64,000 bases of DNA. Origin: a virus (taxonomy: Duplodnaviria > Heunggongvirae > Uroviricota > Caudoviricetes). The notes beneath the pieces were generated by a model, which was given only the letters and a program-made list of their open reading frames with translations, searched no databases and was not told the origin of the DNA. The translations under genes were made by a program, and so were the position numbers. The stretch lies in the IMG/VR virus record IMGVR_UViG_3300003097_000006; one strand, given 5' to 3'. Shown in pieces: positions 3,094 through 34,999 of the stretch; the first letter of the stretch is position 1; the number at the start of each line of letters is the position of its first letter.

Positions 3094-3117
3094 TTTATAT
3101 TATGTGGATTTACTGTA
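3094..3117 (-). promoter_or_regulatory. conserved promoter-like box (GTAAATCCACATAATATAAAGGA on the minus strand) 15 nt upstream of gene 2501..3079
   Basis: It is one of four near-identical copies (3094, 16073, 29037, 34976). Each contains a TATAAT-like element and three sit directly upstream of a ribosome-binding site and start codon. Confidence 0.5.
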
Positions 3118-3136
3118 CAATCTTTGTACAGGTCTA

Positions 3137-3652
3137 TTACAGACGGGTTACTACGTTTTCGTAAGTGGTTACAGCTTTACGAGCCACTTTACCGTGCAAG
3201 CGACACCAGAAGAACTCGCCGCCGTGACGCTCAGCCATAGAGTGAGCAACAGCACGAGCCTGCTTTTCACTTTCCAGAACTACGCGAGGTGGCAGGTTTG
3301 AAGTCGGGCACCAGATGATATACTTACCTGGAACATCATCATCGTCTTTCTCTGGAATTGCTTTAGCGCCGTTAGGGCAAAGCTTCTCTTCCAGATACAT
3401 TGCAGTACCATACACCAATGTCCAACAATACTGGCGAAGCTTCTCTTTAGTTACTTCACGAGTACAGTTGAAAGTACGAATAACATTGCCATCGACGTCG
3501 AAATAAGTAACGTCGGTGCTATTAGAGTTAGCACCCGGTTTCAGTTCGATAGCACCTGCAATATTGCTACCGCGTTTAAGGAGAATTCGGTCACCGGTTT
3601 TAAATACATAGGACGGGCCACGAGCCGGAATCAGAGTGTGCTTAACGGTCAT
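3137..3652 (-). CDS. hypothetical protein (171 aa)
   Basis: Minus-strand ORF. Contains a DDDD acidic patch and no recognisable motif. Confidence 0.6.
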   Translation of the reverse strand: MTVKHTLIPARGPSYVFKTGDRILLKRGSNIAGAIELKPGANSNSTDVTYFDVDGNVIRTFNCTREVTKEKLRQYCWTLVYGTAMYLEEKLCPNGAKAIPEKDDDDVPGKYIIWCPTSNLPPRVVLESEKQARAVAHSMAERHGGEFFWCRLHGKVARKAVTTYENVVTRL

Positions 3653-3858
3653 TATTTACCTACCTTGGTAACTGCTTCGATGATGTGAGAAGGGAATGAT
3701 GCAACCAACTGCATGTTGGACTGACCTTTATCGTTCACACCGCTTTCATAGAACTTGGTGTGAGCTGGGTCAATTTGAACCATATCCGCATGAAATGTCT
3801 GAGCTCTACGGTCAACCTCAGATTTCAGGAACTCTACTTTGTACTTAACCTTTGCCAT
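3652..3858 (-). CDS. hypothetical protein (68 aa)
   Basis: Minus-strand ORF whose stop overlaps the next start. Confidence 0.5.
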   Translation of the reverse strand: MAKVKYKVEFLKSEVDRRAQTFHADMVQIDPAHTKFYESGVNDKGQSNMQLVASFPSHIIEAVTKVGK

Positions 3859-3860
3859 TG

Positions 3861-4046
3861 TTAAACCTCAACGACTGATTTGATTTGCTCTAATGGATAG
3901 AGCGCGATTGTATCATAGCGATTTTCACCACTACGAATGGTTTCTTTCTCTTTAAGAATCTGCACAGATGCAGAATCTGTCCAGAGCTTAGTGCCGTTAT
4001 GACGAACCTTCTCGTCATTGTACAGTGTTACTTCGTAGACTTTCAT
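3861..4046 (-). CDS. hypothetical protein (61 aa)
   Basis: Minus-strand ORF. Confidence 0.45.
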   Translation of the reverse strand: MKVYEVTLYNDEKVRHNGTKLWTDSASVQILKEKETIRSGENRYDTIALYPLEQIKSVVEV

Positions 4047-4047
4047 G

Positions 4048-4275
4048 TTACGACCACGCTGGTGTCATGTCCTTCAAGGCAAAGTCACGAACCTGGTCTT
4101 TATCCACGTCGAGCGCCTTCAGGAGCCACTGGTCCTCAGGATGCCACTCCGTGTGGCCGAACCAGATGTTGATGGGGATGATTCTGCGTTCAGCAGTTTC
4201 ACCACGATAGTTGGTATAGGTGACCCGGTGTGGAACACCGAGCACCATCAACTTAGGACGGTACTCGTTTGCCAT
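4048..4275 (-). CDS. hypothetical protein (75 aa)
   Basis: Minus-strand ORF. The plus-strand ORF 4045..4278 lying antisense to it is taken as spurious. Confidence 0.45.
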   Translation of the reverse strand: MANEYRPKLMVLGVPHRVTYTNYRGETAERRIIPINIWFGHTEWHPEDQWLLKALDVDKDQVRDFALKDMTPAWS

Positions 4276-4595
4276 TAGAAAGGTATCTTGTCGTCAAAGC
4301 CAATCATAGACTGAGCAATACGCTCAATCTCCCTGTCACGCATCTGCTGACGGAAGCACATCTTGTCATATATTTCAATGACCTTTCGTACTTTATCATC
4401 AATGGTGATTTTAGGCTTCACATCGTCAATGAAATGAAGCCTTCGGAAAGGCATGACCAAGTACACAAACTTCGCAGCTTCGAGATTAGTGCGAAGGCAT
4501 ACTCGGTCACCATTGCTCAACTTATAATACACAGAGGTGCTCCAGAATTGTTGCGTCTGATGCCGCGACTGGAACCTCCCAGCCAACGATTTCAA
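4275..4595 (-). CDS. hypothetical protein (106 aa); start uncertain
   Basis: Minus-strand ORF overlapping the 3' end of the ATP-grasp gene by about 74 nt. An internal Met would remove the overlap. Confidence 0.4.
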   Translation of the reverse strand: MKSLAGRFQSRHQTQQFWSTSVYYKLSNGDRVCLRTNLEAAKFVYLVMPFRRLHFIDDVKPKITIDDKVRKVIEIYDKMCFRQQMRDREIERIAQSMIGFDDKIPF

Positions 4596-5781
4596 AGTGA
4601 GACATGCTTACGTCGTACTTACCAACAGTACGCTCACCGTCAACAGTGATTAAATAAACACCGTTGTTTTGGAGAGTTGGAGTGCTATTTGCCAACTGAA
4701 CAGCACGTTCGCCATTACGACGGCTCTGGTTGCTTTGGGTACGGTTTACAGGAGTTGCCCGTAAGTTTTGTGCAGAATCGCCGGACAGCGCAAAGTTTTC
4801 ATCAGCAGCAACTTCTTGTTCAGGAGCCGGTGCTGGCGCTGGGGCAGGTGCAGCTTCACGCTGTAAAGTCTGACGAACGGTACGTGTCTGAGCAGAAGGT
4901 GTGTTGTTCACTTCACGCTGAAGTTCGTCCAGAGAAGGGGCAGGCATCACCTCTTCAACTTCCTGGCCGTTCAGGAGACGCAGCACGTTTGATGCGAAGG
5001 TTGTCAGGTTAGTGCCTGTCATACCTGGAGCGGTATTTACTTCCAGAACCCATGCTTCATCACGACGAGTGATTACATCAACTGCACCGTAATCCAGACC
5101 CAGAGCCTGAATAGCTTTCAGCGCTTCACGCTTAGCCTCTTCATTAAGCTGAGCCATTTGGGTGGCATAAATCCAGCCGGTATGGTAGTTGCGAACTACG
5201 CCAGAATATTCCGGCATGTCAGCGTAACCATCACGACGCTTTTTCTGCTGAACGTAGGTGATTTTACCTTTCATGACGTGAATACGGAACTCACGACGGT
5301 CTGCGGTAATACCACGAGTGTACAACTGGGCGCTTACCGCTGATTCAGAAGTCTGGACACCACCGATGTTTCCCAGGCTGGAAGGGTCGCGGTGACAGGC
5401 AACGATGCCCTCGCCTGAATGGCCCTGGAGTCTTGTGCGGGCATAGACAAGTTCACCGCTGTCAACCCACTCTTGGGCGGTTGTGCGTGAAGTGGTGAAG
5501 TCGACAGTTTTGACTCCAGCATCTGCAAAAGTTCGGAAAGCGGTTGATTTATTGGAAGCGTTGCCAATGCGATGTCCTGGGTTGAGAACGGTAGCACGAC
5601 CGATTACGTGAGAAGGCATGTTGGAATCACCATAGTTAATGATGATATCACCAGCACGGCCTGTGAAATTGGAGTTGTTGCGACGAATTTTAATCAGGTT
5701 GTCACCCTGTGCAGCCACTTCAACTTTCAGTGCATTTACAGTGTCAGAAGCCGCGTGAGACCAGATTGCTAAACGTGCCAT
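4522..5781 (-). CDS. ATP-grasp family ligase (RimK-like) with PAPAPAPAPE linker and extra C-terminal domain
   Basis: The segment ...GAVDVITRRDEAWVLEVNTAPGMTG matches the ExN..PG C-terminal ATP-grasp motif, and the N-terminal half fits an ATP-grasp fold. A (PA)4 linker precedes an approximately 100-aa tail. It sits in a cluster with the GATase and amidoligases. Confidence 0.65.
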   Translation of the reverse strand: MARLAIWSHAASDTVNALKVEVAAQGDNLIKIRRNNSNFTGRAGDIIINYGDSNMPSHVIGRATVLNPGHRIGNASNKSTAFRTFADAGVKTVDFTTSRTTAQEWVDSGELVYARTRLQGHSGEGIVACHRDPSSLGNIGGVQTSESAVSAQLYTRGITADRREFRIHVMKGKITYVQQKKRRDGYADMPEYSGVVRNYHTGWIYATQMAQLNEEAKREALKAIQALGLDYGAVDVITRRDEAWVLEVNTAPGMTGTNLTTFASNVLRLLNGQEVEEVMPAPSLDELQREVNNTPSAQTRTVRQTLQREAAPAPAPAPAPEQEVAADENFALSGDSAQNLRATPVNRTQSNQSRRNGERAVQLANSTPTLQNNGVYLITVDGERTVGKYDVSMSHFEIVGWEVPVAASDATILEHLCVL

Positions 5782-5858
5782 TTTGTATTTACCTTTTCAT
5801 CTATTGGTTGGGAAGAATCTACATTATAAGAGGCTCCGAAGAACCTCTGAAATATAGA

Positions 5859-6110
5859 CTACGCCTCTTTCAAAGCAAGAAGACTTGCAACAATATCACG
5901 ATTCTTAGTTTTAAGACCCGCAATCTCGTCGTCTATAAGGCTGTAGTGATAGGTGAGCATCATCAGTGAAAGTTCGCCATTCGTATGGGAAATCATCTGA
6001 TTGACGTAATACAACTTCTCCTCAAGAAGCTCACCAATACGCTTAAGGTTGTCTTTGCAGAGAGCATCGCTCTCCGCTTTCAACTCCTTCATTACATCCT
6101 TATCGGACAT
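5859..6110 (-). CDS. hypothetical coiled-coil protein (83 aa)
   Basis: Minus-strand ORF. Confidence 0.5.
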   Translation of the reverse strand: MSDKDVMKELKAESDALCKDNLKRIGELLEEKLYYVNQMISHTNGELSLMMLTYHYSLIDDEIAGLKTKNRDIVASLLALKEA

Positions 6111-6340
6111 TAGACCTTAATACCTTTCAGTCGGCAATAATCGGCCAGCATCATGTGAATTGACACTGGATAAGGGATGGCCACTTTAACTCCCTTCTGT
6201 TCTTCGTGGAGACGGACTTGGTAGTCACGTACCGCTCGGAGCATATCTGAACCAAAGTCGGTCATTGGCACTTTACGTACTACAACCGGATTGTCCAGGC
6301 GGAGCATTTTAACTTCTTTCATTGAATTATCCATATTCAT
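6110..6340 (-). CDS. hypothetical protein (76 aa)
   Basis: Minus-strand ORF abutting its neighbours. Confidence 0.5.
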   Translation of the reverse strand: MNMDNSMKEVKMLRLDNPVVVRKVPMTDFGSDMLRAVRDYQVRLHEEQKGVKVAIPYPVSIHMMLADYCRLKGIKV

Positions 6341-6349
6341 CTTTACCTA

Positions 6350-8299
6350 TTACTTGTTGTGGCTTGGAACCATTCCCAGTTCCAATTTTTTAGCGCAGGT
6401 TTCACAGCAAGGTGTGCTACCTACGAATTCTGTCGTTGCTGCCTTTTTGAATGGAATTTTATCATGACACCAAGAGCAGGTGTTCATTTCATTCCACTGA
6501 GACAGCGTGACCTTCATCCCATTTTGAAGAGTTTTACGATACGTCAGAATTGGACGAACGTTGCCCTTCGGTTTGTTAGCGTATTTGTTTGCAAAGCACT
6601 GCAAACAGACACACTCTTTTTCTGACTCTGCATCAACTGGAAGTTCAGTCGAACATTCGATACACTCGAAGCGAAGTTCTCCCAGTTGAGGCTCCCCCTT
6701 TGATTGTGACTCCTTTGGTTCAAGGCCGTCAATAAGACCGGCATCTACGCAGGCGTCACAGTAGGCGAAGTCACGGAACACAGTGGCATCAGCCATGAAG
6801 TCGAAGGGGATTGGAGAGCCACAATTTCCGCAGGAATTTAAACAATCGTGTCTCTCCCACTCCTTTTTTGTATAGACGCTACCATCTCTGGTTACGTCCA
6901 TTTCGTTACCGTCTGATTCCTCTTCTTCCATTTCTGGGTCTTGAGGGACGTCAACGTCGTCAGGAGTGTGTGTCTGAGCAATCAGCGCAGTTCCACGAAC
7001 AGTTGATGCAATGATATGTTCCATTTCATCATCTTCATCAAAATCATCATCCAAAGGAATTGGAGTGACATTGACAGTTTCGTCACGAACATCGCTGACA
7101 ATCAGAGTCAGAATGTAGTTGGCTTCATAAGCCGAGATAACTTTACCAGAGTACAGTTGCTCACCGCCATAGATGTTTTTATCAACACCATGACCCTGAA
7201 CTTCGATGTACTCACCTTCACCAATCCAGCCGGTCAGTTGACCACGCTCAGGATTTTTCGGATATGGTTCGAACTGGAATGCTTCGAACTTAATACGGTC
7301 ACCGATTACAGCATCAACGCCGTGGCTCTGAAGCATCTCATTTAACTGATGATGCTTTTCGAGCGTGGCTCTCATTTCTGATGTTTGATGAGTGTTGCTA
7401 GAAACGCGGTTTGGATAGCTGTTAGCCCCTCGATTATTGTGGGGCCAGCGGCTGTCGTAGTCGTCGTAGTCGTCGTCATACGAGTTATAGCCGCCCGAAT
7501 TCCAGTTGCGATAGTTGTAAGAATAGGTGGAGCGAAAGGTTGGAAGCTCATGCTTCACCTCCTCCCTAAACTTCAGCCCATCGGCGGTATCAAAGATATA
7601 CTGAACACCAACTTCGAGTTCAAACTCTTTTTCAATCGTCGGATTGAACTTCCGGCGAGACATAATCCATTTAATCATGTCTTTTTCGGAAGCACCATAC
7701 CAGTCACCGGTATTGGTTTTCATCATGTAGAAAGGACGCTCATCGTTTCGGATGAAATTCAGAGTGTTCTCTTTAGCATCATGCCAAACCAGAACGAACG
7801 CACCATGCAATTTCTTGATGGTTTCAGCGATACCGATTGTAGCAATCGAATAGCAGACATTTTCACTGTCTACTTCGAAACGCTTGTGGTCTGGTAACAA
7901 AGACTGGTCAACCAGTGAACCATTGTGAACCAGGGTGATATGCTCATGTTGGAAAGGGTGAGCGTTTTTGTCGTTAACCGCACCGGCAGTTGCATAACGG
8001 TTGTGACCAACCATGAACTTCGGATTGATTGAAGACGTCGTTGTTGCCTTCGTAACAGGGTTAACATTTTTGGTTTTGTGTTCTTTAACATCATCCCAGA
8101 TTTGGGAACGAACAAACATGTCACCTGGGATTGCTTTCTTTGCAATCTTAATGAAAGCTTGTTCATTATACGGCTTGTAATAAGCCATGACGCCAGTTGA
8201 GTGTTCACCACGGAAAGTGTCAGCAAACAACATGTTTTCAAAACGTTCGATATTAGCCGACGAAAGTGTCACGCCGCCCACAAATACGATTCCACACAT
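6350..8299 (-). CDS. class-II (Ntn) glutamine amidotransferase fused to a C-terminal array of CxxC zinc ribbons
   Basis: The protein starts MCGIVFVGG with a Cys2 nucleophile and carries GHNRYATAG, both characteristic of GATase class II (GlmS/AsnB/PurF-like). A Tyr/Asp/Asn-rich low-complexity linker follows. The C-terminus has at least 5 CxxC pairs (CGNCG, CDAC, CIEC, CLQC, CSWC, CETC). Confidence 0.7.
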   Translation of the reverse strand: MCGIVFVGGVTLSSANIERFENMLFADTFRGEHSTGVMAYYKPYNEQAFIKIAKKAIPGDMFVRSQIWDDVKEHKTKNVNPVTKATTTSSINPKFMVGHNRYATAGAVNDKNAHPFQHEHITLVHNGSLVDQSLLPDHKRFEVDSENVCYSIATIGIAETIKKLHGAFVLVWHDAKENTLNFIRNDERPFYMMKTNTGDWYGASEKDMIKWIMSRRKFNPTIEKEFELEVGVQYIFDTADGLKFREEVKHELPTFRSTYSYNYRNWNSGGYNSYDDDYDDYDSRWPHNNRGANSYPNRVSSNTHQTSEMRATLEKHHQLNEMLQSHGVDAVIGDRIKFEAFQFEPYPKNPERGQLTGWIGEGEYIEVQGHGVDKNIYGGEQLYSGKVISAYEANYILTLIVSDVRDETVNVTPIPLDDDFDEDDEMEHIIASTVRGTALIAQTHTPDDVDVPQDPEMEEEESDGNEMDVTRDGSVYTKKEWERHDCLNSCGNCGSPIPFDFMADATVFRDFAYCDACVDAGLIDGLEPKESQSKGEPQLGELRFECIECSTELPVDAESEKECVCLQCFANKYANKPKGNVRPILTYRKTLQNGMKVTLSQWNEMNTCSWCHDKIPFKKAATTEFVGSTPCCETCAKKLELGMVPSHNK

Positions 8300-15839: not shown

Positions 15840-16065
15840 CTTCAAAGTGCTCCATCTTATATGTTGCACGAACACGTTGCATGTTCTTACCGCTGTATGC
15901 CTCGCGCTTCTCAACGCACTCTTCAGAGTTCTTTGCATACACTGGATAGTCTTCATAGTTGAAGGTATCAGTTACAACAATTAAGAACTCAGAACCTTGA
16001 GCCTTGCCACGAAGAATCCAGTCACGTAGTTCGCCACGATGGGGAAGTGGAAATTTACCTTTCAT
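15832..16065 (-). CDS. hypothetical protein (77 aa), start at the internal ATG downstream of the promoter-like box
   Basis: The track ORF 15832..16095 reads through the conserved box. ATG 16063-16065 is preceded by an AGAGG ribosome-binding site and by the box at 16073-16093. Confidence 0.5.
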   Translation of the reverse strand: MKGKFPLPHRGELRDWILRGKAQGSEFLIVVTDTFNYEDYPVYAKNSEECVEKREAYSGKNMQRVRATYKMEHFEDD

Positions 16066-16072
16066 AGAACCT

Positions 16073-16093
16073 CTTATATTATGTGGATTTACC
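16073..16093 (-). promoter_or_regulatory. conserved promoter-like box, copy 2 (GGTAAATCCACATAATATAAG on the minus strand)
   Basis: Identical core to the box at 3094. It lies immediately upstream of the ribosome-binding site and ATG of gene 15832..16065. Confidence 0.5.
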
Positions 16094-16264
16094 AAAGACG
16101 TAATTGTTTACCTCTTCAATGCTCCTGGTTTCTAATACTGTTCTCCAATCAAAGCAACGACCATACCCTCTTCTGTCGTCACCATCCATCCACTTTTGCA
16201 CATGGAATAGAGTTAGATGTTCATGTTGTAAAACACGAACACCATCTCCCGAATATATTAACAC
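16079..16264 (-). CDS. hypothetical small protein (61 aa, GTG start)
   Basis: A strong AGGAGGT Shine-Dalgarno sequence sits 7 nt upstream of GTG 16262-16264. It is in frame with the C-terminal part of the track ORF 16079..16354, and its stop lies inside the promoter-like box. Confidence 0.4.
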   Translation of the reverse strand: MLIYSGDGVRVLQHEHLTLFHVQKWMDGDDRRGYGRCFDWRTVLETRSIEEVNNYVFGKST

Positions 16265-16274
16265 TGTTGACCTC

Positions 16275-16448
16275 CTACTTATTGCAAGCCCAGAACGCAC
16301 CCTGAAGCGCTGCAAAGATGCCACCAACGAATGCCATACCCAGTGCATTGTCACCAGACCGGCACAGTAGTAAGATGAAAACGAAGATAAGAGTAAGCAG
16401 GAATGTAATCACTGCACTATAACCAAACAAACGACAAGCAGTTATCAT
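16275..16448 (-). CDS. small hydrophobic membrane protein (57 aa); candidate holin or lysis accessory
   Basis: ATG 16446-16448 overlaps the stop of the upstream HTH gene in an ATGA arrangement. The translation MITACRLFGYSAVITFLLTLIFVFILLLCRSGDNALGMAFVGGIFAALQGAFWACNK contains two hydrophobic stretches. It is below the 60-aa track cutoff. Confidence 0.4.
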   Translation of the reverse strand: MITACRLFGYSAVITFLLTLIFVFILLLCRSGDNALGMAFVGGIFAALQGAFWACNK

Positions 16449-16759
16449 TTCTTTCTAAGCCTCAGTGACACATCAAGTACATAACAAGCATGGTATGAAA
16501 GAGAAGCAAGGGAGCGACCCAGTTTTTTAGCCATAGTAGCTCTTGACATACGACCTGCCCAACGACGGACATAAGCCTCTTCTTCTTTTGTCCACACTTT
16601 CTTGTGGTAGGCAATCGAGATTCCATAATTGGAAGCCGTCCGCTTAATTGTTTTAACAGTTACCCCGAAGTGTTTAGCAATCGTCTCGACTGAAACCTTC
16701 GTGCCCATCTCGGTCAGTTCATCCAACCGTTCATCAGTCCAGAATTTTTTACGACCCAT
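16445..16759 (-). CDS. helix-turn-helix DNA-binding protein (about 104 aa)
   Basis: VSVETIAKHFGVTVKTIKRTASNYGIS is HTH-like. ATG 16757-16759 has an AGAGGTGG ribosome-binding site; the track start 16765 is GTG. Confidence 0.55.
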   Translation of the reverse strand: MGRKKFWTDERLDELTEMGTKVSVETIAKHFGVTVKTIKRTASNYGISIAYHKKVWTKEEEAYVRRWAGRMSRATMAKKLGRSLASLSYHACYVLDVSLRLRKK

Positions 16760-16781
16760 AACCACCTCTAACGATTTAATA

Positions 16782-19674: not shown

Positions 19675-20009
19675 ATTGCCTCTGTATGAAGGGTGGTAAC
19701 CACACTGCCAGCCTGGCCTAAAAACACGGGAACAGAAAATCCACATAAAAGGTTTTACCCAGGATTTTAAGAGCCTTACAAACTATCGTTTGATGGTCGC
19801 CGTCTGGGCAACCAATGAGGCTTATTCAACTAACTTTTAATTGAGCGCCATGCCCATACTGAGTGTTAACAGCTGAGTCTTAAGTTTTAACCCGGTGCGG
19901 TTTTACGGCTGCCCGGTTAGCCCCTAGGTTTCAATTAGCAGTTGAATGCCACTATCGCTGTGGCTTGCGTTCTGTTTTAGTTTTAACAGCAGGTGATTAC
20001 CGATTTTGT

Positions 20010-24613: not shown

Positions 24614-25033
24614 TTAATCACCTGTTCCAGGTTTGCTGACACCATTGAAACGACCTCGCTTCATGACTCTCGCTTGTTCTGCTAAGCGAAATGCCCTACC
24701 TGCTTCTGCTGCCTGACGTTGTGATTCTTTAACCACACGTAAAGCATCCTGCTGCAATTTGTTATTCATTCGACGCTGAAGAACCATAATGCACTTCTTC
24801 AGAATCGCAATCTTAACAGCGTCAGGAATCTTATTGAGTCGCAGGAATTTATCAACGAAAGACTTGGCGTTGTTATATTCTTTACGAACAAAGACAACGT
24901 TGCTTTCCGTATAATCCAACAATGGGTCAAGACGTTCAAATGTAACGTCATGCACATCACTGAATTCTTCGCCTGAGTAGTAGCATGTTCCATCACCTTT
25001 GCGGAACAGCTTAACCATTTTCTCAAGGCTCAT
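24614..25033 (-). CDS. hypothetical protein (about 139 aa, start at MSLEKM)
   Basis: ATG 25031-25033 has an AAAGG ribosome-binding site. The track start 25225 overlaps the upstream gene by more than 100 nt. Confidence 0.45.
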   Translation of the reverse strand: MSLEKMVKLFRKGDGTCYYSGEEFSDVHDVTFERLDPLLDYTESNVVFVRKEYNNAKSFVDKFLRLNKIPDAVKIAILKKCIMVLQRRMNNKLQQDALRVVKESQRQAAEAGRAFRLAEQARVMKRGRFNGVSKPGTGD

Positions 25034-25106
25034 TTTAACCTTTGGCTCATTGCTTGCACCACGGTCGCAGTTAGCATACTTGGCGGCAATCAACCGGCTG
25101 ATAGCA

Positions 25107-25421
25107 CTATCGGTCAAAGTCGAGTACAACACTCCCTTTCTCCTCAATCTCAGCCATAACTTTATTATACTCACGAACAGTTCGAACGAGAGCAGCTTTA
25201 GGATTATCCTGCATGGCAATCCCAACGATTACGCCCTGTACCTGAATATCAGTACACCACGTATTAGTAATTGTTGCTGCGCAACCAACCAGCTTAGGTT
25301 TGGTTCGAGCTTTTCGACCTTCTAGGTCTGCAACACGCTCTTCCATTAACATTGTGAGAATCATTGTCTCAAGAGCGTCTTCATACATCTCTAACTTTTT
25401 GTCAGGAAAAATCATTCGCAT
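25107..25421 (-). CDS. hypothetical protein (104 aa)
   Basis: Minus-strand ORF. Confidence 0.5.
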   Translation of the reverse strand: MRMIFPDKKLEMYEDALETMILTMLMEERVADLEGRKARTKPKLVGCAATITNTWCTDIQVQGVIVGIAMQDNPKAALVRTVREYNKVMAEIEEKGSVVLDFDR

Positions 25422-28649: not shown

Positions 28650-29018
28650 TTAAGCCTTTTCTAAGAGCTTGTCACTCTCACGTTTAAATTCTTCAATCAA
28701 ACCATCATCAGGTTCAATAGGCATTAAATGCTTTTCAGCAATTAATGCGTAATCATCTGGTATGTTTGAATTGTAAATTTCAGGATTCTTTCTGAACCCC
28801 TCACTGCGGATGAGCCACAGGTTGATATCACATCGACGGATTTTAAAAGTTTTACCTGGGAAGATTACACAACTTCCCACCCAAGTCCCTTCTTCATCCA
28901 CCTCATGTGCAGCGAATCGCTGAACCAGAGTAACTGACTTACCGACTAAATGCTTTTTGCCGTAGTTAGTACGAGCATTAATTACAAGAGCATTTTCACC
29001 AGGAATTAAACCTTTCAC
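28650..29018 (-). CDS. hypothetical protein (122 aa, GTG start)
   Basis: An AAGGAG ribosome-binding site lies 7 nt upstream of GTG 29016-29018. The promoter-like box at 29037-29059 is immediately upstream. Confidence 0.55.
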   Translation of the reverse strand: MKGLIPGENALVINARTNYGKKHLVGKSVTLVQRFAAHEVDEEGTWVGSCVIFPGKTFKIRRCDINLWLIRSEGFRKNPEIYNSNIPDDYALIAEKHLMPIEPDDGLIEEFKRESDKLLEKA

Positions 29019-29036
29019 AGTGAACTCCTTATTATA

Positions 29037-29059
29037 TGTGGATTAACTGACTAATAAAT
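29037..29059 (-). promoter_or_regulatory. conserved promoter-like box, copy 3 (GTTAATCCACATATAATAAGGAG on the minus strand)
   Basis: Contains an exact TATAAT. It is directly followed by the ribosome-binding site and start of gene 28650..29018. Confidence 0.5.
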
Positions 29060-29342
29060 ACTCAGAGAATACTCATTAGTGAGTTGCCAGTCTCTTCCTG
29101 GCCGTCAAACCTAATCGGTGTCATAGCGGTTAACTATGTATGCGAGGTAAATCTCCATGTGGGAGCAAAACCTCCACCTAACTCATTCATTCCTATTCCA
29201 ACGTGCTCGGCCAAAGGAGGAGACCTTATCTGTACAACGAGTTGGTAGACTCACAGAGGGCTACATTGGGGAATTGTCCCATTTCAGAGAATTGACGATG
29301 AGCTGCCGCCTTCAGCAACGCAGACTAGCGTCTACAGCAGTG

Positions 29343-29501: not shown

Positions 29502-29502
29502 C

Positions 29503-29685: not shown

Positions 29686-29686
29686 G

Positions 29687-29869: not shown

Positions 29870-30228
29870 CTTCTCTGTTGGAAATTAATGCTCCGAGCAT
29901 ACAGCGCCAAATGATTTGCACGATTGGCGATAACTTCAAGCGGGATGTCACCCTGCTCAAGCCCGGCGTCACAGTAGTACTTCTGGTGCAGACAAACACC
30001 CATCGCATACTCTCGACGGTTCTGCCAGATAGTAAAGAAGTCGTCTAACATTTCATCACTGAACTTGATGTATGGGTCAGACTTCATTCGGTTGATTGCC
30101 TCCGGTGATAGAGGCAACGGAGAGTGAGGCTTCATTGTGTGAGGGTAAATGTCACACATCATCGGCTTCACTGCTTTGTAATTCTCGTACTGCTCAGGGG
30201 TGAAGTGCGTTATCTCTGCCCGTACCAT
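29851..30228 (-). CDS. hypothetical protein (125 aa)
   Basis: Minus-strand ORF. Confidence 0.5.
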   Translation of the reverse strand: MVRAEITHFTPEQYENYKAVKPMMCDIYPHTMKPHSPLPLSPEAINRMKSDPYIKFSDEMLDDFFTIWQNRREYAMGVCLHQKYYCDAGLEQGDIPLEVIANRANHLALYARSINFQQRRWIPKK

Positions 30229-30592
30229 TTAGAACCTTCGATTTATTAGCCTCACCTACAACATAATACGAACCCCAAAGAGGTGTATAAATCTTGCAAG
30301 ACTGAGAAGGGTTTAAGTCACAACCTGTTTGCTCTTCTGCGAGACGAAGTACATCGACTAACGTCGCTTCTGTCTTTGATTTCGCACCCATCTCGATAGC
30401 TTCAAGATAACTATCGAAAACCATATCAAGACAAGTATCAGAGTCGCTTTGATTAGCAGCATCACACACCACCTTAGCGTCGTCGTTCATTTCATCAACG
30501 ATAGCTTGCGGCAGGAATACATCTGATTCATGTGCAAGCGCAGGAGCTGGATGACAAGCAGTCATCAACAGAATTAAAAGTAAACGTTTCAC
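30194..30592 (-). CDS. hypothetical secreted protein (132 aa) with signal peptide
   Basis: MKRLLLILLMTACHPAPALA is a signal peptide. Several Cys residues are present. Confidence 0.5.
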   Translation of the reverse strand: MKRLLLILLMTACHPAPALAHESDVFLPQAIVDEMNDDAKVVCDAANQSDSDTCLDMVFDSYLEAIEMGAKSKTEATLVDVLRLAEEQTGCDLNPSQSCKIYTPLWGSYYVVGEANKSKVLNGTGRDNALHP

Positions 30593-30595
30593 TAC

Positions 30596-30856
30596 TCACC
30601 TCAGTTGGCTGTCTTTCGAGCCTCTACGATTGTATCCAGAAGCAACCATACGGTCATTACCAGATTGGCAGCGGATACAGTGTGTGCAGCCCGGAACAGC
30701 TAATCGGCGGGCTTTAGGAATTGTCCGACCACAAGCTAAGCAATGGGTTCGAGCCTGTCCTCTCTTGATTTGAGAGCGAGCAAAGTCAACAGCATTATCC
30801 ACTGTAGCTTGAATAGTCTCTTGATGGTTGTCTACAGAACCGAACCCAACAGCCAT
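30596..30856 (-). CDS. DksA/TraR-family C4 zinc-finger protein
   Basis: CLACGRTIPKARRLAVPGCTHCIRCQ is the CxxC-x17-CxxC signature of the DksA/TraR family. Confidence 0.6.
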   Translation of the reverse strand: MAVGFGSVDNHQETIQATVDNAVDFARSQIKRGQARTHCLACGRTIPKARRLAVPGCTHCIRCQSGNDRMVASGYNRRGSKDSQLR

Positions 30857-31098
30857 TACTTGATTACCTCTAATGATTTGATGCTACGGGCTTCTACTAC
30901 CCCGTCAGACCACTTAACCCACACACGCTGGATGTTACCAGTGAATGCTGTAATAGTCCCAAACACCTGCTGGGTTGGTCGTGCATAGCGATAAAGCACT
31001 TTCTTATTTAACAGCACTTCACGCTGTACCTGGTTGACAGGTGCGCCGTTGTTGTTATCAAGAGAGGCTTTTAATAATTGGAAAGCTGATTGACGCAT
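30856..31098 (-). CDS. hypothetical protein (80 aa)
   Basis: Minus-strand ORF. Confidence 0.5.
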   Translation of the reverse strand: MRQSAFQLLKASLDNNNGAPVNQVQREVLLNKKVLYRYARPTQQVFGTITAFTGNIQRVWVKWSDGVVEARSIKSLEVIK

Positions 31099-31188
31099 GA
31101 TTTACATCCCCAAAGCTGCGGCAAATAACAGGCCGCCAAACACACCAGTGGCGCACAACGCAACCACACCAGACACAACAGAACGCGC

Positions 31189-31200
31189 CGTCACAGTAGT
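31189..31200 (-). repeat. 12-mer ACTACTGTGACG (minus strand), copy b
   Basis: Lies inside a small hydrophobic ORF (31102..31308 frame) and encodes the peptide N-T-T-V-T-A. Confidence 0.5.
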
Positions 31201-31201
31201 A

Positions 31202-31609
31202 TTACGAGTTGCCATGAGTGAGCACCTTAACCATTGCATATGGATTGATTGAAGTAATGTCGCCAGTTTCCAGAACTTTGGCACGAACTTCGGAGAAATC
31301 ACCCTCATTTTCGAGGATTAAAAACGTTTCAGAGTTGAAGTTGTTCTTATCATCTGCCATACGAACAACATCATTCACATCAAGTGCGCCAGCTTCGACT
31401 GGTTCGACTGCCTGAGTAGGCAGGAATTCGCACCGTGCATACGGCTGAAACTTCATGATACGCTTAGTATCTTCTTGAATGGCAAGCACATTGTCGTACT
31501 CACCATACATACGAATACACACGAACACCGCGCCGTTTGCTGTAAAACGTTCGCCGATATTCAATTCAAACATTTCTTTACGCATAGTTTTAGTCATGAT
31601 TAACTCCAA
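31202..31609 (-). CDS. hypothetical protein (135 aa)
   Basis: Minus-strand ORF. Overlaps the small hydrophobic ORF 31102..31308. Confidence 0.5.
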   Translation of the reverse strand: MELIMTKTMRKEMFELNIGERFTANGAVFVCIRMYGEYDNVLAIQEDTKRIMKFQPYARCEFLPTQAVEPVEAGALDVNDVVRMADDKNNFNSETFLILENEGDFSEVRAKVLETGDITSINPYAMVKVLTHGNS

Positions 31610-31788
31610 ATATCACGTTTAACAGTGAGATTGATTTGTGGTTTGCTACCAAACAAAGCCACACGAATCAGAGGCCACAGGGCAAGGATAAAGAAAACGC
31701 TTGCCAACATGTTGCCGCCCATGAGCCAGAAGAAGGCAGCCAGGATAAGGAACAATACAGACAGAGCAACAGTCAGAAACGTTTTCAT
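31600..31788 (-). CDS. small membrane protein (62 aa, 2 transmembrane helices)
   Basis: LTVALSVLFLILAAFFWLMGG and ASVFFILALWPLIRVALFG. Confidence 0.45.
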   Translation of the reverse strand: MKTFLTVALSVLFLILAAFFWLMGGNMLASVFFILALWPLIRVALFGSKPQINLTVKRDIWS

Positions 31789-31790
31789 AA

Positions 31791-32360
31791 TTAACCCTTA
31801 AACAGATTCCAGTGAACACGGAGTGCTTCCATGTCCAACTTAACACGGTGTTCTTTCAACTCTGTACCTTCATACAAAGCTGAATATGGATGATAGCAGT
31901 TGAAGTGTACTTTCATAGTGTCAGGGTCAACACTCATAAGTCCACGTTCAAACAGGATACGCAGAGTCGTGTCAAACAGTATTCCATTTGACGTACCATC
32001 ACCACCAGTAGGACGAATCATTGCAGCCTGCAAGCATTTGTCAATCTTATGACCCGTTACAGCACACTTACCACCAAAGTTAGCCATGACACGCTTATGG
32101 AATGTCATGAATTCAGTTTTAGGCGTTGCAGGAGCTGGAACATTTGCTTTGCTGGGCGGCGTCACAGTAGTTTGTGACACCTGGCGGTGACGGTGAAGTT
32201 GTGGGCGATAAGTTACCGTCTCTTCTGTTGCCCGCTGCTCTGCCTCAATACGTGCTTGACGTTGACGCTGAGCTTTTGTCGGTTTGTTTAACAGATTGTT
32301 TTGAGCCTTGAGCATATCAGCAATGATACGGTCTTGCTCCTCACGAGACGGCATATTCAT
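31791..32360 (-). CDS. HNH endonuclease (HNH_2-like) with basic N-terminal region
   Basis: GGKCAVTGHKIDKCLQAAMIRP...SNGILFDTTLRILFERGLMSVDP matches the HNH_2 pattern (C..TG....L.AAHI.P....NG..L....H.LFD.G). Confidence 0.6.
   Translation of the reverse strand: MNMPSREEQDRIIADMLKAQNNLLNKPTKAQRQRQARIEAEQRATEETVTYRPQLHRHRQVSQTTVTPPSKANVPAPATPKTEFMTFHKRVMANFGGKCAVTGHKIDKCLQAAMIRPTGGDGTSNGILFDTTLRILFERGLMSVDPDTMKVHFNCYHPYSALYEGTELKEHRVKLDMEALRVHWNLFKG
32160..32171 (-). repeat. 12-mer ACTACTGTGACG (minus strand), copy c, inside the palindrome GTCACAAACTACTGTGAC
   Basis: Lies inside the HNH gene and encodes the peptide Q-T-T-V-T-P. Confidence 0.5.
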
Positions 32361-32361
32361 T

Positions 32362-32571
32362 TTAAAATCCCCACACGTTATTCGTGTAACTCACACCTGT
32401 AGGCCGTGACGTGTCCGCCATTGACCTATCGTGTGCTTTCTTGATGTTAGCCTTGAGTTGTTTTCTCTCGGCCTGTAAACGTTTGTAGAGCTTTTTGCTC
32501 TTGACACGCGGAACACAGCGGCCTTTACACTTTTGAAGATGTTCGAGGTCGTTCCACGTTTTACTAGCCAT
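32362..32571 (-). CDS. hypothetical basic protein (about 70 aa, start at MASKTW)
   Basis: The track ORF 32362..32727 is trimmed. ATG 32569-32571 overlaps the stop of gene 32564..32932 by 8 nt. Confidence 0.35.
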   Translation of the reverse strand: MASKTWNDLEHLQKCKGRCVPRVKSKKLYKRLQAERKQLKANIKKAHDRSMADTSRPTGVSYTNNVWGF

Positions 32572-32932
32572 GACGCTTGCCCTTTGCAAACTTAGAGGAC
32601 TGGCGACGTGCTTTGTGAATCTTTGGCTTAGGTGTGCCACGAACACCACGACGATTAGGCGCAGCATTCTTTTCAGCCAGCATTTCAGGCGTATATGTAC
32701 GCTCGTCACCCAGCTTGATTGTTTCACCTGACACTTTGGTCTTAAAGCCGTGTTGACTCACCTGGTAGTGCAGACATTTACGCTTACGACCGTCTAAGAG
32801 CTTTGTAGTCAGTTCACTAGCAGTCTTACGACCACCCACAGGAGAAAGAGCTTGCTTGCGTTTAGGCTGGCGAGATTTACCCTTTGGTTTGACTGCGTAG
32901 ATTGACGCATTCATGATGAATTGAACAGACAT
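32564..32932 (-). CDS. hypothetical highly basic protein (122 aa)
   Basis: An AAGGGG ribosome-binding site is present. Lys/Arg-rich. The 12-mer motif copy d lies about 30 nt upstream. Confidence 0.5.
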   Translation of the reverse strand: MSVQFIMNASIYAVKPKGKSRQPKRKQALSPVGGRKTASELTTKLLDGRKRKCLHYQVSQHGFKTKVSGETIKLGDERTYTPEMLAEKNAAPNRRGVRGTPKPKIHKARRQSSKFAKGKRHG

Positions 32933-32963
32933 ACTAACCCCTTGTCAGTTGATAGGCGCACCC

Positions 32964-32975
32964 GTCACAGTAGTT
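32964..32975 (-). repeat. 12-mer ACTACTGTGACG (minus strand), copy d, flanked by GGTGCGCC direct repeats
   Basis: Non-coding position between the 41-aa ORF and gene 32564..32932. Confidence 0.5.
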
Positions 32976-32993
32976 TCGAGGCGCACCAGTGCT

Positions 32994-33118
32994 TAGATAA
33001 ACATACTTGCAACAATCATTGCAGCGATAATCAATCCGGCAAACTTTGCCCAGAATGCTGCCACACCTTCATGAATGTTAATATCACCGTATTCAACGGT
33101 GTACTTGTTACGCTTCAT
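32994..33118 (-). CDS. small membrane-anchored peptide (41 aa)
   Basis: A strong AGGAG ribosome-binding site lies 8 nt upstream of ATG 33116-33118. The translation MKRNKYTVEYGDINIHEGVAAFWAKFAGLIIAAMIVASMFI is hydrophobic at the C-terminus. It is below the ORF-track cutoff. Confidence 0.3.
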
Positions 33119-33187
33119 AACATTACTCCTATTGTTACCAGTGAATTTAATAAAGCCCCTGCTATCAGAGGCTTGATAATCCCACTG

Positions 33188-33805
33188 TTACGCCGCTTTT
33201 TTCTCTGCTTTGTTGCGCAGTTCACGGACGTTATCAGCCGCAAACATATCGCTAACAGCTTTCAGTGCCATGTTACGCAGCACGTCGATGTTAGCGCCGC
33301 TGTCAATCGCAGCCTGGATTTGAGACTGGATAGATGTACGGATTGCTTTTGCAGACTTATCCATGTCGTAGGATTTTTCAGTACGTGCCACGGTCTTTTT
33401 ATCGTGCAGCAGGGAGGTATGTTCCGCTTCGATGAAAGACTTAACAAAGGTACGGAAAGCAACCTTTTCTTCTTTCGTGGTCGCAACTTCGCCTTTTTCG
33501 GCGTTAGGTTTCCAGTTAACCACGGTGTAAGCCTTCTCTTTCTTATCAGCGGACGTGTTGTCTTTATCCAGCTTGATAGTCAGTTTAGCCATACGTGGCA
33601 GCAGGTCATTAATGACCGCCTTTTGTAACTGAGGGAAACGCTTGATAGCGTTCACGAAAAATTCAATGTTGGCCGGGTTACAGGAGTCTTTGCCCCAATA
33701 ATCAGACACAACTACTTCGAAAGACTTAACCAGACCACGGGAACCTTCACGGAAATTCTTGACGGATTCCAGAATCAGAGTTTGGGTAGCATTCAGTTTA
33801 GCCAT
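33188..33805 (-). CDS. hypothetical protein (about 205 aa); first gene of the leftward block
   Basis: ATG 33803-33805 has a GAGGTG ribosome-binding site. The track start at 33901 has no ribosome-binding site. Lys/Glu-rich, no recognisable motif. Confidence 0.55.
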   Translation of the reverse strand: MAKLNATQTLILESVKNFREGSRGLVKSFEVVVSDYWGKDSCNPANIEFFVNAIKRFPQLQKAVINDLLPRMAKLTIKLDKDNTSADKKEKAYTVVNWKPNAEKGEVATTKEEKVAFRTFVKSFIEAEHTSLLHDKKTVARTEKSYDMDKSAKAIRTSIQSQIQAAIDSGANIDVLRNMALKAVSDMFAADNVRELRNKAEKKAA

Positions 33806-34975
33806 GATAACACCTCGATAATTAACCATTTGATTTGAAGGAAGCAACGCGCTTCGGTGGATAGACCTCGCCTCATAAGATTTAAGGTCTACCCGAAACA
33901 CACTACAACCAGCCGCCGGAGAGTCCAGGAGCTGGAAGGTACAACTCTAGCCGGTATCAGCTTGACCGGCAACGCTCGACAGCTACGCTCATGACTGCAT
34001 GAGGAAACGGCTTAATCCGTTCGGTCGCTATCAATTTTGTTACACTATCCAGTAACCAGGACAATCACGCGCCTAATGGATACGGGAGGCGAGAACCTTT
34101 GCACTTTACATGATTAATTTCTTTCCCCTTTATACTCCCGACAATCAGCAATTAAACCAGTGTTATTTGATTCAGGGAAACGCCGCACACACAAAAGGCA
34201 GCGTGATAATCAAATCACCGCCGCGCTATTGTTTAACGTGGTATTGTTGTTTCCCGTTGTCGCATTCTTTGCTTAACGCTTTCGGGAGTTAGTCGCAATT
34301 AGTAGACAAACTGCACGCCTAGCTATCGCTTTCACCTTTCGGATTTTTAATCTATAGCGGCTATTCTATTCACCGCCGACCAATTCCGAGATACAGAAAA
34401 CCATGCCAATTCACCCAATCATATAGCCTGACTGCTGCTAGGTTAGAATATTGGATGCCTTGCCTACAGTGCCAGCCTGATACAGAACAGCTACACTTTC
34501 AGAAGCAAAGGGCTACGCGCTCTTAAGTTTAGTCAGTGTCTTATTGCATCGTCGGATTTTGTCTATCATCTTGCCCGACTAGCTCACCACACTACGATAA
34601 AGAATCACCAGTAAAGAGTCTACAGTTTGCCCTACCAACTGACTAGACCAGTCAGATTATAGGGTATAACTTGCAAACGGTGACGCCTCGGTACTTTGAG
34701 GAAACGCCTTGTCACCCTGGCTATCTCGCAACACGTTCGGTAAACAATTCTAAATTACCCGCCGTGTCTATCGCCTTGCCTTATTGCTTATGGCTTAATC
34801 CGCATCCCATTACAGGACGGATTATCACATTGACCAGGGGAAAATATCCATTGGCCTGATTTTTACCTTGCCATTAGGCGCTAGTCGATTCATTCCCTAG
34901 CTTTTCGGACGGCGTTAGTGATTCGCTGCCTAGTATCAGTAAAACTATGGCTATCTGATACGTTCAAATTTTATA

Positions 34976-34999
34976 CAGTAAATCCACATATAATAAGAG
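34976..34999 (+). promoter_or_regulatory. conserved promoter-like box, copy 4 (CAGTAAATCCACATATAATAAGAG), pointing rightward into ORF-free DNA
   Basis: Same box as upstream of three minus-strand genes, but here in the plus orientation. The only downstream ATG (35001) is followed by a stop after 2 codons. Confidence 0.45.

Follow-up and report, generated by a model that had tools for sequence, protein, structure and literature searches.

Middle promoters of phage T4 consist of a MotA box and a sigma-70 -10 element without a -35 element, and rely on sigma appropriation by AsiA/MotA. T4-type phages also carry PeSL cassettes, which Arbiol et al. are said to have described in 2010 and in which an early promoter and a stem-loop reportedly bound mobile gene modules. 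The gp36-dependent middle/late promoters of phiEco32 have a single element, tAATGTAtA (Pavlova et al., summarised in PMC8948821), and at one of them, P6 (AATGTAGA-AGGAG-tataaa-ATG), transcription starts 6-8 bp downstream of it. In phages 7-11 and GAP52, Lavysh et al. detected no tAATGTAtA-like elements, and their conclusion was that the promoters of 7-11 fall into two classes only, early and late. The promoters before 7-11 gene 151 were validated by primer extension, and the late promoters are read by SaPh711_gp47 at the consensus GTAAtg-N16-aCTA (PMC8948821). The published 7-11 study used MEME and reported no over-represented motif; the sites described here lay outside what it probed, and the two dedicated 7-11 transcription papers (PMC8948821, PMC4331800) leave them unprobed.

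We analyzed a 64,000-nucleotide stretch of DNA (the window), a Moazamivirus sequence ~92% identical to Salmonella phage 7-11. The pattern CAGTWAATCCACATA-WWWWWW-AAGRG occurred in it exactly four times (three minus-strand copies, one plus-strand copy) compared to 0 expected, and these 22-26 bp boxes, A to D, are listed below with their adjoining elements. With up to two mismatches, the 21-nt pattern CAGTWAATCCACATAWWATAA gave 4 matches versus 0.00 expected (100 shuffles) and GTAAATCCACATA gave 7 versus 1.56 expected; exact matches to GTAAATCCACATA were found at 3101-3113(-), 16080-16092(-) and 34978-34990(+), and a one-mismatch version, GTTAATCCACATA, at 29035-29047(-). A weight matrix trained solely on copies from other phages picked out exactly four window sites, scoring 30.7-41.1 bits; nothing else there exceeded 5 bits, and the maximum in shuffled sequence was 12.7. 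The four near-identical copies proposed by an earlier sequence-only reading were thus confirmed by pattern and weight-matrix searches across the window, except that its third copy, placed at 29037-29059, lies ~10 nt further left and starts with GTTAAT rather than GTAAAT.

Coordinates of the four boxes and the elements adjoining them in the window
Feature	Position	Strand	Description
Box A	3090..3115	-	CAGTAAATCCACATAATATAAAGGAA; upstream of gp094-family gene 2501..3079, ATG at 3079
Hairpin at box A	3113..3131	-	Perfect 7 bp, CTGTACA-aagat-TGTACAG; 3' arm overlaps first bases of box A
Box B	16069..16094	-	TGGTAAATCCACATAATATAAGAGGT; TAA of upstream ORF (16081-16079) inside
Box C	29024..29049	-	CAGTTAATCCACATATAATAAGGAGT; upstream of gp139-family gene 28650..29018, GTG start at 29018
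Hairpin at box C	29050..29080	-	14 bp, ACTAATGAGTATTC-tct-GAGTATTTATTAGT; directly 5' of box; z = -2.1
Box D	34976..35001	+	CAGTAAATCCACATATAATAAGAGAC; sole plus-strand copy, in large intergenic region
Inverted repeat near box D	34933..34961	.	GTATCAG-N15-CTGATAC, 14 nt upstream of D (34976)
Leftward sigma-70 early promoter	35205..35233	-	TAGACA-17-TATAGT; homologous to 7-11 positions 101-129

The box is a conserved, family-wide sequence in 7-11-type phages. Complete relatives carry a fifth copy, E, just beyond the window's extent. There are 5 copies per genome in 7-11, SE131, pSal-SNUABM-01, A24 and ECO319P1, 4 in PKM.Lu.22.1 and Privateer, and 6 in GAP52, and in each genome a single copy, no more and no fewer, is inverted. 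In the more distant genera Crifsvirus and Privateervirus, equivalent positions are occupied by a variant, TAATTATTGCACAT-TATAAT-AAGAG, with 4-6 copies per genome. The position of box A is kept in 7-11 (58843), SE131, pSal-SNUABM-01 and PKM.Lu.22.1 and holds the variant box in GAP52, A24 and ECO319P1; the place upstream of the gp094-family gene is retained across genera. Box B is an invariant 24-nt island between unalignable flanks (alignment A1), at a mosaic junction: 7-11 has a replaced downstream gene, and the window a replaced upstream flank. Furthermore, the upstream half of the box differs from genus to genus, with all copies of one genome carrying the same variant while positions stay unchanged between genera, which is the pattern expected from a phage-encoded recognition factor. 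Of the TATAAT-like hexamers noted earlier, those of C and D read TATAAT and those of A and B read TAATAT. The most frequent hexamer in Crifsvirus is TATAAT too, in a register shifted by one base relative to CACA. Hexamer variation is exclusively A<->T, which argues for a -10-like or melting function over chance, and a final T is missing from A and E of PKM.Lu.22.1 (TATATA) and C of pSal-SNUABM-01 (TAATAA).

The boxes are intergenic and oriented the same way as the genes that come after them, and the minus-strand copies all lie within the minus-strand gene cluster, right before start codons or a 5' leader. At A, B and C, three of the four window copies, the box closes at its 3' end with a Shine-Dalgarno sequence (AAGGAG, AAGAGG or AAAGGA); the boxes had been placed 10-15 nt upstream of a ribosome-binding site, whereas their purine-rich end is the Shine-Dalgarno itself. 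Box B contains that of a 77-aa gene with its ATG at 16065, and the previously reported stop-codon overlap there, by ORF 16079..16354, was borne out. A, B and C are each directly preceded by a hairpin, and for the box core that follows no pairing is predicted; the arms of the box C hairpin differ in SE131 and pSal-SNUABM-01, with pairing, judged by eye, kept. By analogy, this arrangement recalls promoter/stem-loop cassettes. Copies without an adjacent gene make up two of the five per genome: D is followed only by ATG-GAA-TGA, and E, which heads a lysis/PnuC cassette in Crifsvirus, would head a ~70-nt terminated RNA without a gene in Moazamivirus. In GAP52, a 50-nt leader separates an E-like copy from the PnuC-like gene that comes next.

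The Shine-Dalgarno ends, the predicted unpaired core right behind the hairpin in A, B and C and the A/U-rich stretch would all suit a cassette acting only as RNA within polycistronic mRNA, as a strong ribosome-binding site or translation enhancer, or as an RNase E-type processing site at which a hairpin followed by a single-stranded A/U-rich stretch releases translatable downstream mRNAs. However, no ORF follows D or E, and D is antisense to the sole known transcription across it and so cannot work as sense RNA. Moreover, the invariant 5' half would be superfluous for a ribosome-binding site, and its co-variation between genera is unexpected if host ribosomes or host RNases read the site. We regard either form of this explanation as very unlikely.

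We compared the box with the known promoter classes of 7-11. A sigma-70 two-hexamer scan found no -35 at any box, and a canonical sigma-70 promoter is ruled out because the -35 hexamer is missing. Nor is it a gp47 late promoter: it misfits the GTAAtg-N16-aCTA consensus, and the late motif is constant across genera, being identical in four of them, whereas the upstream half of the box varies. The late motif itself, GTAAGn-N16-cACTA, was found in the window at the published late-gene positions (36475/36744, 43624, 47050, 51948, 57151 and 63967). The box is neither published 7-11 promoter type, and judged from its sequence it looks like a third, previously undescribed class of gene-expression signal.

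We propose, with somewhat less than even confidence, that the box is a -35-independent promoter cassette read with a putative phage factor; in this view, Grimontviridae phages have a cis-acting gene-expression cassette of their own, which most likely forms a third promoter class lacking a -35. Host RNA polymerase would melt the A+T-rich TAnnnT hexamer, a putative phage-encoded factor would position the polymerase by reading the invariant 11-14 bp just upstream of it (CAGTWAATCCACA in Moazamivirus, TAATTATTGCACA in Crifsvirus and Privateervirus), and transcription would start at, or just past, the conserved AAGRG. A, B and C would re-initiate transcription within the ~40-kb leftward early operon, their distances to the early promoters in 7-11 being 5.8, 18.1 and 31.1 kb, and D would fire rightward, head-on to the sigma-70 early promoters. 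The earlier suggestion of a phage polymerase or factor is supported in part: the promoter-like anatomy (TAnnnT hexamer, no -35, purine-rich start), the direction of the boxes, the island conservation and the joint change between genera speak for it, but gp47, the sole phage sigma factor, recognises another motif, which is bipartite and unchanged between genera. A phmmer search found no gp47 paralogue as a second sigma, and Pfam and PHROGs searches for a recognition factor returned only a weak D5-like helix-turn-helix protein and a DksA/TraR zinc finger. Sigma-70 geometry puts the start inside or after the Shine-Dalgarno, such that with a start 7 nt past the hexamer the adjacent gene would lose it. 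The hexamers not ending in T, the head-on orientation of D and its distance from gene 1, the gene-less Moazamivirus E and the two-class conclusion of Lavysh et al. also count against a promoter.

Copy D lies 1.85 kb from gene 1, its orientation opposes validated early transcription, and at least two non-promoter readings suit this inverted copy equally well. The transcript from the leftward early promoter at 35205..35233 crosses D in antisense. As D lies 20-200 nt downstream of such a promoter, the early leader RNA includes an anti-box with complementarity to those boxes overlapping ribosome-binding sites, and D could be the functional regulator, the 22-nt anti-box pairing in trans or cis with A, B, C and E and masking their Shine-Dalgarno or creating RNase III substrates. 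A near-consensus leftward promoter was found at this distance in all seven genomes examined, the anti-box starting at +18 in Privateer, +24 in PKM.Lu.22.1, +43 in GAP52 and +89 in 7-11, and the gene 151 promoters are experimentally validated. Predicted duplexes reached -28 to -34 kcal/mol compared to a median of -10 for random targets. The presence of one inverted copy, and no more, per genome fits this scheme, as does the coverage of the ribosome-binding site by the box, and a hairpin with compensating changes adjoins the anti-box: the repeat beside D has the same geometry and other stems in 7-11 (TTAGCGG/CCGCTAA) and in SE131 and pSal-SNUABM-01 (TCTGACA/TGTCAGA). If pairing operates, all copies in a genome would change together because they are complementary to D, with no protein factor involved. 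However, D and its targets differ in the central hexamer in every genus, by A<->T only and without G-U-compatible transitions, and complementarity to D is not maintained at the Shine-Dalgarno end. In GAP52, 50 nt separate the E-like copy from the start codon, and pairing would thus leave the ribosome-binding site exposed; furthermore, no terminator past the anti-box would yield a discrete small RNA, and such an RNA has not been observed. Antisense control is an unlikely account of the box.

Copy D also abuts GenBank record ends and a probable terminal-repeat boundary. The box might then be recognised by terminase or a nickase, D marking the left boundary of a direct terminal repeat and the minus strand being nicked at the other copies, an explanation that we consider decidedly unlikely. 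The 7-11 and pSal-SNUABM-01 records break inside D (ending ...CACATATAA and starting TAAGAGAC...), where an arbitrary break would land in a box with a chance of ~0.1%, and GAP52 breaks 9 nt further on, its first bases, ATTTCTAATCTCACTCG, resembling the experimentally determined start of the 193-bp phiEco32 terminal repeat, AGCCTTTCTCTCACTC. PhageTerm reported redundant ends for SeKF_80, with two preferred forward and several reverse termini, and conserved motifs at localised nicks are documented in phiKMV-like phages and phage tf. On the other hand, the pSal-SNUABM-01 and GAP52 record starts may be copied from 7-11, the A24, ECO319P1, SE131 and SeKF_80 records break elsewhere, and another motif, TACTRTGMC, accounts better for the multiple reverse-strand termini. 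Moreover, a cleavage site needs no Shine-Dalgarno, stop codon, TAnnnT hexamer or exact placement at gene starts.

The core of the box, AAATCCACA / TAATCCACA, resembles the DnaA box TTATCCACA, matching it at 7-8 of 9 positions in Moazamivirus and PKM.Lu.22.1, and the Crifsvirus sequence TATTGCACA matches the relaxed consensus TTWTNCACA at 8 of 9. With the A+T-rich stretch after the core as an unwinding element, it could be a host DnaA site for DnaA-controlled transcription or an auxiliary origin element, and five perfect DnaA boxes 440-620 nt from D in Crifsviruses make it plausible that DnaA is used in that region. Yet an 8/9 match is common by chance and the comparison was post-hoc, the true Crifsvirus DnaA boxes differ clearly from the box (TTATTGCACA), Moazamiviruses lack a DnaA cluster near D, and a genus-specific change is unexpected when a conserved host protein reads the site. 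This reading appears extremely improbable.

Compared with known systems, the box shares with the gp47 late promoters its genome, its nature as a conserved phage-specific signal and, at the 5' end of most boxes, GTAA; however, those promoters are bipartite with a non-conserved 16-nt spacer, whereas the box is a single continuous conserved block, and the spacing to CTA is 17 nt in box A, with CTA missing from B, C and D. The nick motifs of phiKMV-like and tf/LUZ24-like phages (PMC3517423) are likewise ~10-20 bp long, strand-biased and present in a handful per genome, in podoviruses with short terminal repeats and replication genes common to this group, but they are not tied to gene starts, and the tf consensus here is a separate motif outside the box. 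That consensus occurs 11 times on the minus strand of the window and 0 times on the plus strand. Like T4-type PeSLs, the box combines a hairpin with a short conserved promoter-like block between small early genes at mosaic junctions, but PeSLs hold full sigma-70 early promoters including the -35. With T4 middle promoters, the proposed cassette would share the concept of host sigma-70 polymerase, a good -10, a phage-factor site in place of the -35 and internal boosting of the early region; the MotA box is centred at -30, however, while in the box the conserved element directly adjoins the hexamer, at about -13 to -26, and there is no MotA-box sequence and no annotated MotA or AsiA homologue. 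The gp36 promoters of phiEco32 differ in sequence, and their sigma, gp36, is identified while gp47 here reads another motif. They belong to a related phage group, and they too occur in few copies per genome and lack a -35, consisting of one short element that is highly conserved, with the start, as proposed for the box, a few bp downstream; at P6 this element abuts the Shine-Dalgarno, which provides a precedent for a promoter touching a Shine-Dalgarno.

The box, a repeated element of 22-26 bp, belongs to a real and conserved family. The sequence-only reading had claimed four copies, and this was borne out both by a pattern search of the window, in which the longer pattern CAGTWAATCCACATAWWATAA gave 4 matches in the window against 0.00 expected, and by a weight matrix trained solely on box copies from four other phages, which recovered just the four boxes at 30.7-41.1 bits, with the next sites at 5 bits or less and a shuffled-sequence maximum of 12.7 bits. 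The first 20 kb of the window are 92.6% identical to Salmonella phage 7-11 (Moazamivirus, Grimontviridae) over 92% of their length, window position 1 corresponding to ~55,867 in 7-11; leftward-transcribed early genes extend to ~34.3 kb and are followed by a large intergenic region and, from ~36.9 kb, by a rightward late cluster (gene 1, tRNAs, terminase, portal etc.). Start codons follow copies A, B and C at 3079, 16065 and 29018, and inspection of the sequence downstream of plus-strand copy D revealed no gene after it. The box itself ends in the Shine-Dalgarno purines, so that the earlier placement of a ribosome-binding site 10-15 nt beyond the box was wrong, and the interval 29037-29059 assigned to the third copy was off by ~10 nt; the stop-codon overlap claimed for the second copy stands, as the stop of ORF 16079..16354 lies inside box B. 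The A/T-rich hexamer within the box reads TAATAT in A and B and TATAAT in C and D. An extra half-box at 19738(+) was dismissed as a coding coincidence: read on the opposite strand, it is the beginning of the PRPP-synthetase gene, ATGTGGATTTTC. ARAGORN called two tRNAs downstream of the gene that follows box A, a tRNA-Leu and one that may be an ochre suppressor (anticodon TTA), at window 2118-2195(-) and 2367-2452(-), of which Rfam confirms the tRNA-Leu only; the region is an unannotated gap in the 7-11 record, with neither tRNA annotated there, and an Rfam scan of the window gave tRNAs only.

Coordinates of box copies, nick-consensus sites and associated features
Feature	Genome	Position	Strand	Remark
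13-mer GTAAATCCACATA in copy A (3090-3115)	window	3101-3113	-	exact
13-mer GTAAATCCACATA in copy B (16069-16094)	window	16080-16092	-	exact
13-mer GTAAATCCACATA in copy C (29024-29049)	window	29035-29047	-	one mismatch
13-mer GTAAATCCACATA in copy D (34976-35001)	window	34978-34990	+	exact
Copy E	7-11	30509	-	directly after last leftward-cluster gene, ~1.3 kb past window end
Inverted repeat by D	window; 7-11	34933-34961; ~89862-89890		7-bp stem, 15-17-nt loop, 14-23 nt from D
TACTRTGMC sites (5' coordinates)	window	1143, 6763, 16369, 24453, 28648, 29976, 31198, 32169, 32972, 49782, 62479	-	
Candidate nickase gene	window	24614-25132	-	HNH/endonuclease VII matches
Candidate nickase gene	window	31791-32360	-	weak, degenerate HNH_2 domain
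DnaA-box cluster	GAP52; A24; ECO319P1	443-623; 41-221; 310-490		

The same four copies, together with a fifth, copy E, are present in 7-11, SE131 and pSal-SNUABM-01. Copy E is followed by ~70 nt and then by a bidirectional terminator (7-11 30420-30511 for the whole arrangement, outside the window), which would amount to a gene for a small RNA were the box a promoter; an 11-mer scan for antisense targets of a copy-E RNA gave no match besides the box itself. A segment of this 7-11 region, TTATTATCTTACA, is kept in PKM.Lu.22.1, a relative with ~78-82% identity in short patches only (6-21% of queries). Four copies of the box occur in PKM.Lu.22.1; they all read AGTTAATCCACATAT...AAGAG and occupy the D, E, A and C-like positions. 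In the Crifsviruses (GAP52, A24 and ECO319P1) and in the Privateervirus Privateer the box takes a variant form, TAATTATTGCACAT-TATAAT-AAGAG or ...GCACATAATATAAGG, with 4-6 copies per genome. Here too the plus strand of every genome bears a single copy, located in the large intergenic region; another copy is near the end of the leftward cluster, and in the Crifsviruses one copy lies upstream of the gp094-family gene. Common to all variants is a layout of a genus-specific half, CACA(T), six A/T bases that usually read TAnnnT, and AAGRG. The sequence upstream of the box is not conserved, and at locus B the box forms a 24-nt invariant island (alignment A1), the upstream flank being unrelated in the window and the downstream gene different in 7-11. 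An IMG/VR scan with a 16-mer returned at least 120 single chance matches plus 7-11 and was uninformative, while an IMG/VR search for further relatives with the gp094-family protein returned 7-11 only. A box family in phiEco32 was rejected, as just one TTATTGCACTCATAAT was found and no further copies in that genome; this sequence (record position 77249-77264) resembles the Crifsvirus box, and the right terminal repeat is 112 nt downstream of it.

Few phiEco32-like phages have had their transcription programme dissected; phage 7-11 is among them. Lavysh et al. (2022; PMC8948821) mapped late promoters in front of eight genes (1, 8, 12, 16, 22, 28, 48 and 69), all read by the phage sigma factor gp47 (consensus GTAAtg-N16-aCTA), and two sigma-70 early promoters before gene 151; their MEME analysis gave no other over-represented motif in 7-11, and their primer extensions were aimed at sites other than the boxes. 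Guzina and Djordjevic (2015; PMC4331800) predicted TGATGT motifs for the same phage. The box is unreported in both papers, and a literature search with its sequence returned unrelated primer sequences only. Nor is the box a canonical sigma-70 promoter: the hexamers in the window all fit the -10 pattern TAnnnT and those of relatives mostly do (exceptions TATATA and TAATAA), a two-hexamer scan called none of the four window boxes on its own strand, and thus no -35 element, and the TGn of an extended -10 is absent, the bases before the hexamer being CACA. The gp47 motif was found in the window where expected, on the plus strand, and GTAAGn-N16-cACTA occupies late-gene positions in Moazamivirus, PKM.Lu.22.1, GAP52 and Privateer, the same motif throughout. 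Among the window boxes GTAA...CTA occurs only in A, at a spacing of 17 versus 16 in the gp47 late consensus; box C and all PKM.Lu.22.1 copies start with GTTAAT, and the Crifsvirus and Privateer boxes are without GTAA. Whereas gp47 late promoters keep a constant motif across genera around a spacer that is not conserved, the upstream half of the box is genus-specific, and gp47 is therefore unlikely to be its reader. A phmmer search with gp47 and the phiEco32 sigma factor gp36 as queries returned gp47 orthologues only, and no second sigma.

Our favoured but tentative reading is that the box is a promoter-type signal, most likely of a new promoter-like class that we put forward as a candidate mechanism only. 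All copies change together, genus by genus, as expected from a co-evolving recognition factor, which counts in favour of this reading. Furthermore, the exact sigma-70 optimum TATAAT is present in many copies of two genera, at a register relative to CACA that differs between them, and hexamers vary among copies by A-to-T and T-to-A changes only. Box size and layout are like those of phage-specific promoters, the copies are intergenic and oriented like the genes that follow, a hairpin lies directly 5' of A, B and C, and the E-like copy of GAP52 is followed by a 50-nt leader and then a gene. A start inside or after the Shine-Dalgarno is an awkward geometry, for which phiEco32 P6 offers a precedent. 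Spacing in 7-11 (5.8 kb from the early promoters to C, 12.3 kb from C to B, 13.0 kb from B to A and 11.3 kb from A to P69, the first late promoter) would suit internal re-initiation inside the early operon. Candidate recognition factors, no more than guesses, are a D5-like helix-turn-helix protein (window 16445-16765) and a zinc-finger protein of DksA/TraR type (30596-30856); a phyletic-pattern search for proteins in all box-bearing genera and not in phiEco32 gave too many candidates to be of use.

Pairing of antisense RNA is an attractive alternative. All seven genomes examined have a leftward sigma-70 promoter of near-consensus sequence 20-200 nt right of copy D, and the 7-11 counterparts were validated by primer extension (PMC8948821); the early leader RNA would therefore hold the reverse complement of D, here termed the anti-box, which could pair with boxes overlapping ribosome-binding sites. 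Predicted duplexes of the anti-box with A, B and C reach -28 to -34 kcal/mol, an antisense regulator with its targets would show just such a pattern of one inverted copy and several sense copies over ribosome-binding sites, and pairing would explain the coordinated evolution of the boxes without a protein. However, D and the other copies do not stay complementary at the central hexamer or at the Shine-Dalgarno end. The inverted repeat beside D has three kinds of stem, depending on the phage (GTATCAG/CTGATAC, TTAGCGG/CCGCTAA and TCTGACA/TGTCAGA), so that compensating changes conserve the hairpin in the early leader.

Copy D probably also adjoins the terminal-repeat boundary. The GenBank records of 7-11 and pSal-SNUABM-01 break inside D, and that of GAP52 breaks 9 nt later, at first bases similar to the start of the phiEco32 terminal repeat as determined by experiment, which is why D probably abuts the boundary; on the forward strand this would fall at ...TATAA^TAAGAGAC. 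Record ends of A24, ECO319P1 and SeKF_80 were discarded as uninformative, being assembly overlaps or arbitrary breaks. A right boundary at the TACAGTGAC site ~1.1 kb right of D was likewise dropped, because this site is without the extended consensus of the strand-biased motif described below. The antisense and genome-end roles could be joined in a two-part RNA/DNA control system in place of a simple promoter set, a combination that we consider unlikely. Inverted copy D, at the start of the early operon and just beyond the terminal repeat, would also mark the position of the genome-end cut; its 22-nt anti-box, on every early leader RNA, would pair with the ribosome-binding-site-overlapping boxes of selected early genes, timing their translation or processing, and also with copy E at the 3' end. 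No protein specificity factor would then be needed for seed and targets to co-evolve.

The strand-biased motif is TACTRTGMC, the nick consensus that was mapped by experiment in Pseudomonas phage tf (PMC3517423). The minus strand of the window has 11 occurrences of it and the plus strand 0 (1.8 expected), with the extended form ACTACTGTGACG, and the strand ratio is 12-13 to 1 in 7-11, SE131, pSal-SNUABM-01 and PKM.Lu.22.1; Crifsviruses use the variant TACGGTGAC at 8-9 to 1. This bias suggests that the sites are probably site-specific single-strand nicks in 7-11-type phages. The tf/LUZ24-type consensus TACT/RTGMC is not contained in the box and is a separate motif. A PhageTerm report for SeKF_80 lists several reverse-strand termini, which are better explained by TACTRTGMC than by a genome-end role of the boxes. 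Two proteins are candidate nickases. One, annotated as 'Srd / decoy of sigma-70', has further matches (1.6e-12) to PHROGs for HNH endonuclease and endonuclease VII; the other carries an HNH_2 domain that is weak and degenerate, and its own gene includes a TACTGTGAC site.

The box core, AAATCCACA or TAATCCACA, matches the DnaA box TTATCCACA (relaxed TTWTNCACA) at 7-8 of 9 positions, and none of the boxes matches the exact relaxed consensus. Five perfect DnaA boxes cluster 440-620 nt right of copy D in three Crifsviruses, where they may form a DnaA-dependent origin; the Moazamiviruses have no such cluster in that region. In the window, four iteron-like repeats ATGAC(A/C)TCCCATCAA with 27-nt spacing (36616-36716), just upstream of gene 1 and beside late promoter P1, could be a binding array for replication, packaging or a regulator.

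The published 7-11 model has two promoter classes and leaves open how the ~40-kb early operon is transcribed to its end, for which its authors propose an undefined antitermination strategy (PMC8948821). The box is a candidate for the missing control layer: a third family-conserved signal, placed at ~6-13 kb intervals inside the early operon, facing the early promoters and adjoining the probable genome end. Should the box need a phage factor, the two would form a new pairing of a DNA element with a polymerase-redirecting protein; if the box works at the RNA level, the family would be an unusual built-in antisense network. In a lambda-type nut site, boxA (CGCUCUUA) and a boxB hairpin after it lie a short way past an early promoter. 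Read in reverse complement, as on the early RNA, D gives GUCUCUUA, a 6/8 match to the boxA consensus, and the covarying 7-bp hairpin lies 14-23 nt beyond the anti-box end, ~36-45 nt after GUCUCUUA; we know of no N-like protein. T5-type late promoters were dropped as a model for a phage-specific element, because sigma-70 holoenzyme reads T5 promoters of both the early and the late class, the main difference between them being in the discriminator region. The box also differs in sequence from the phiEco32 gp36-type promoter, a single element, tAATGTAtA, read by a sigma without region 4, and Lavysh et al. (PMC8948821) reported none of this kind in 7-11 or GAP52. The annotations of 7-11, SE131, pSal-SNUABM-01, GAP52, A24 and Privateer list no phage RNA polymerase gene. 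In what is a resemblance only, the box is like the promoters of T7-like single-subunit RNA polymerases, both in length (22-26 bp versus a ~23-bp block) and in its succession of a specific half, six A/T bases and AAGRG, which parallels an A+T-rich melting segment and a purine-rich start.
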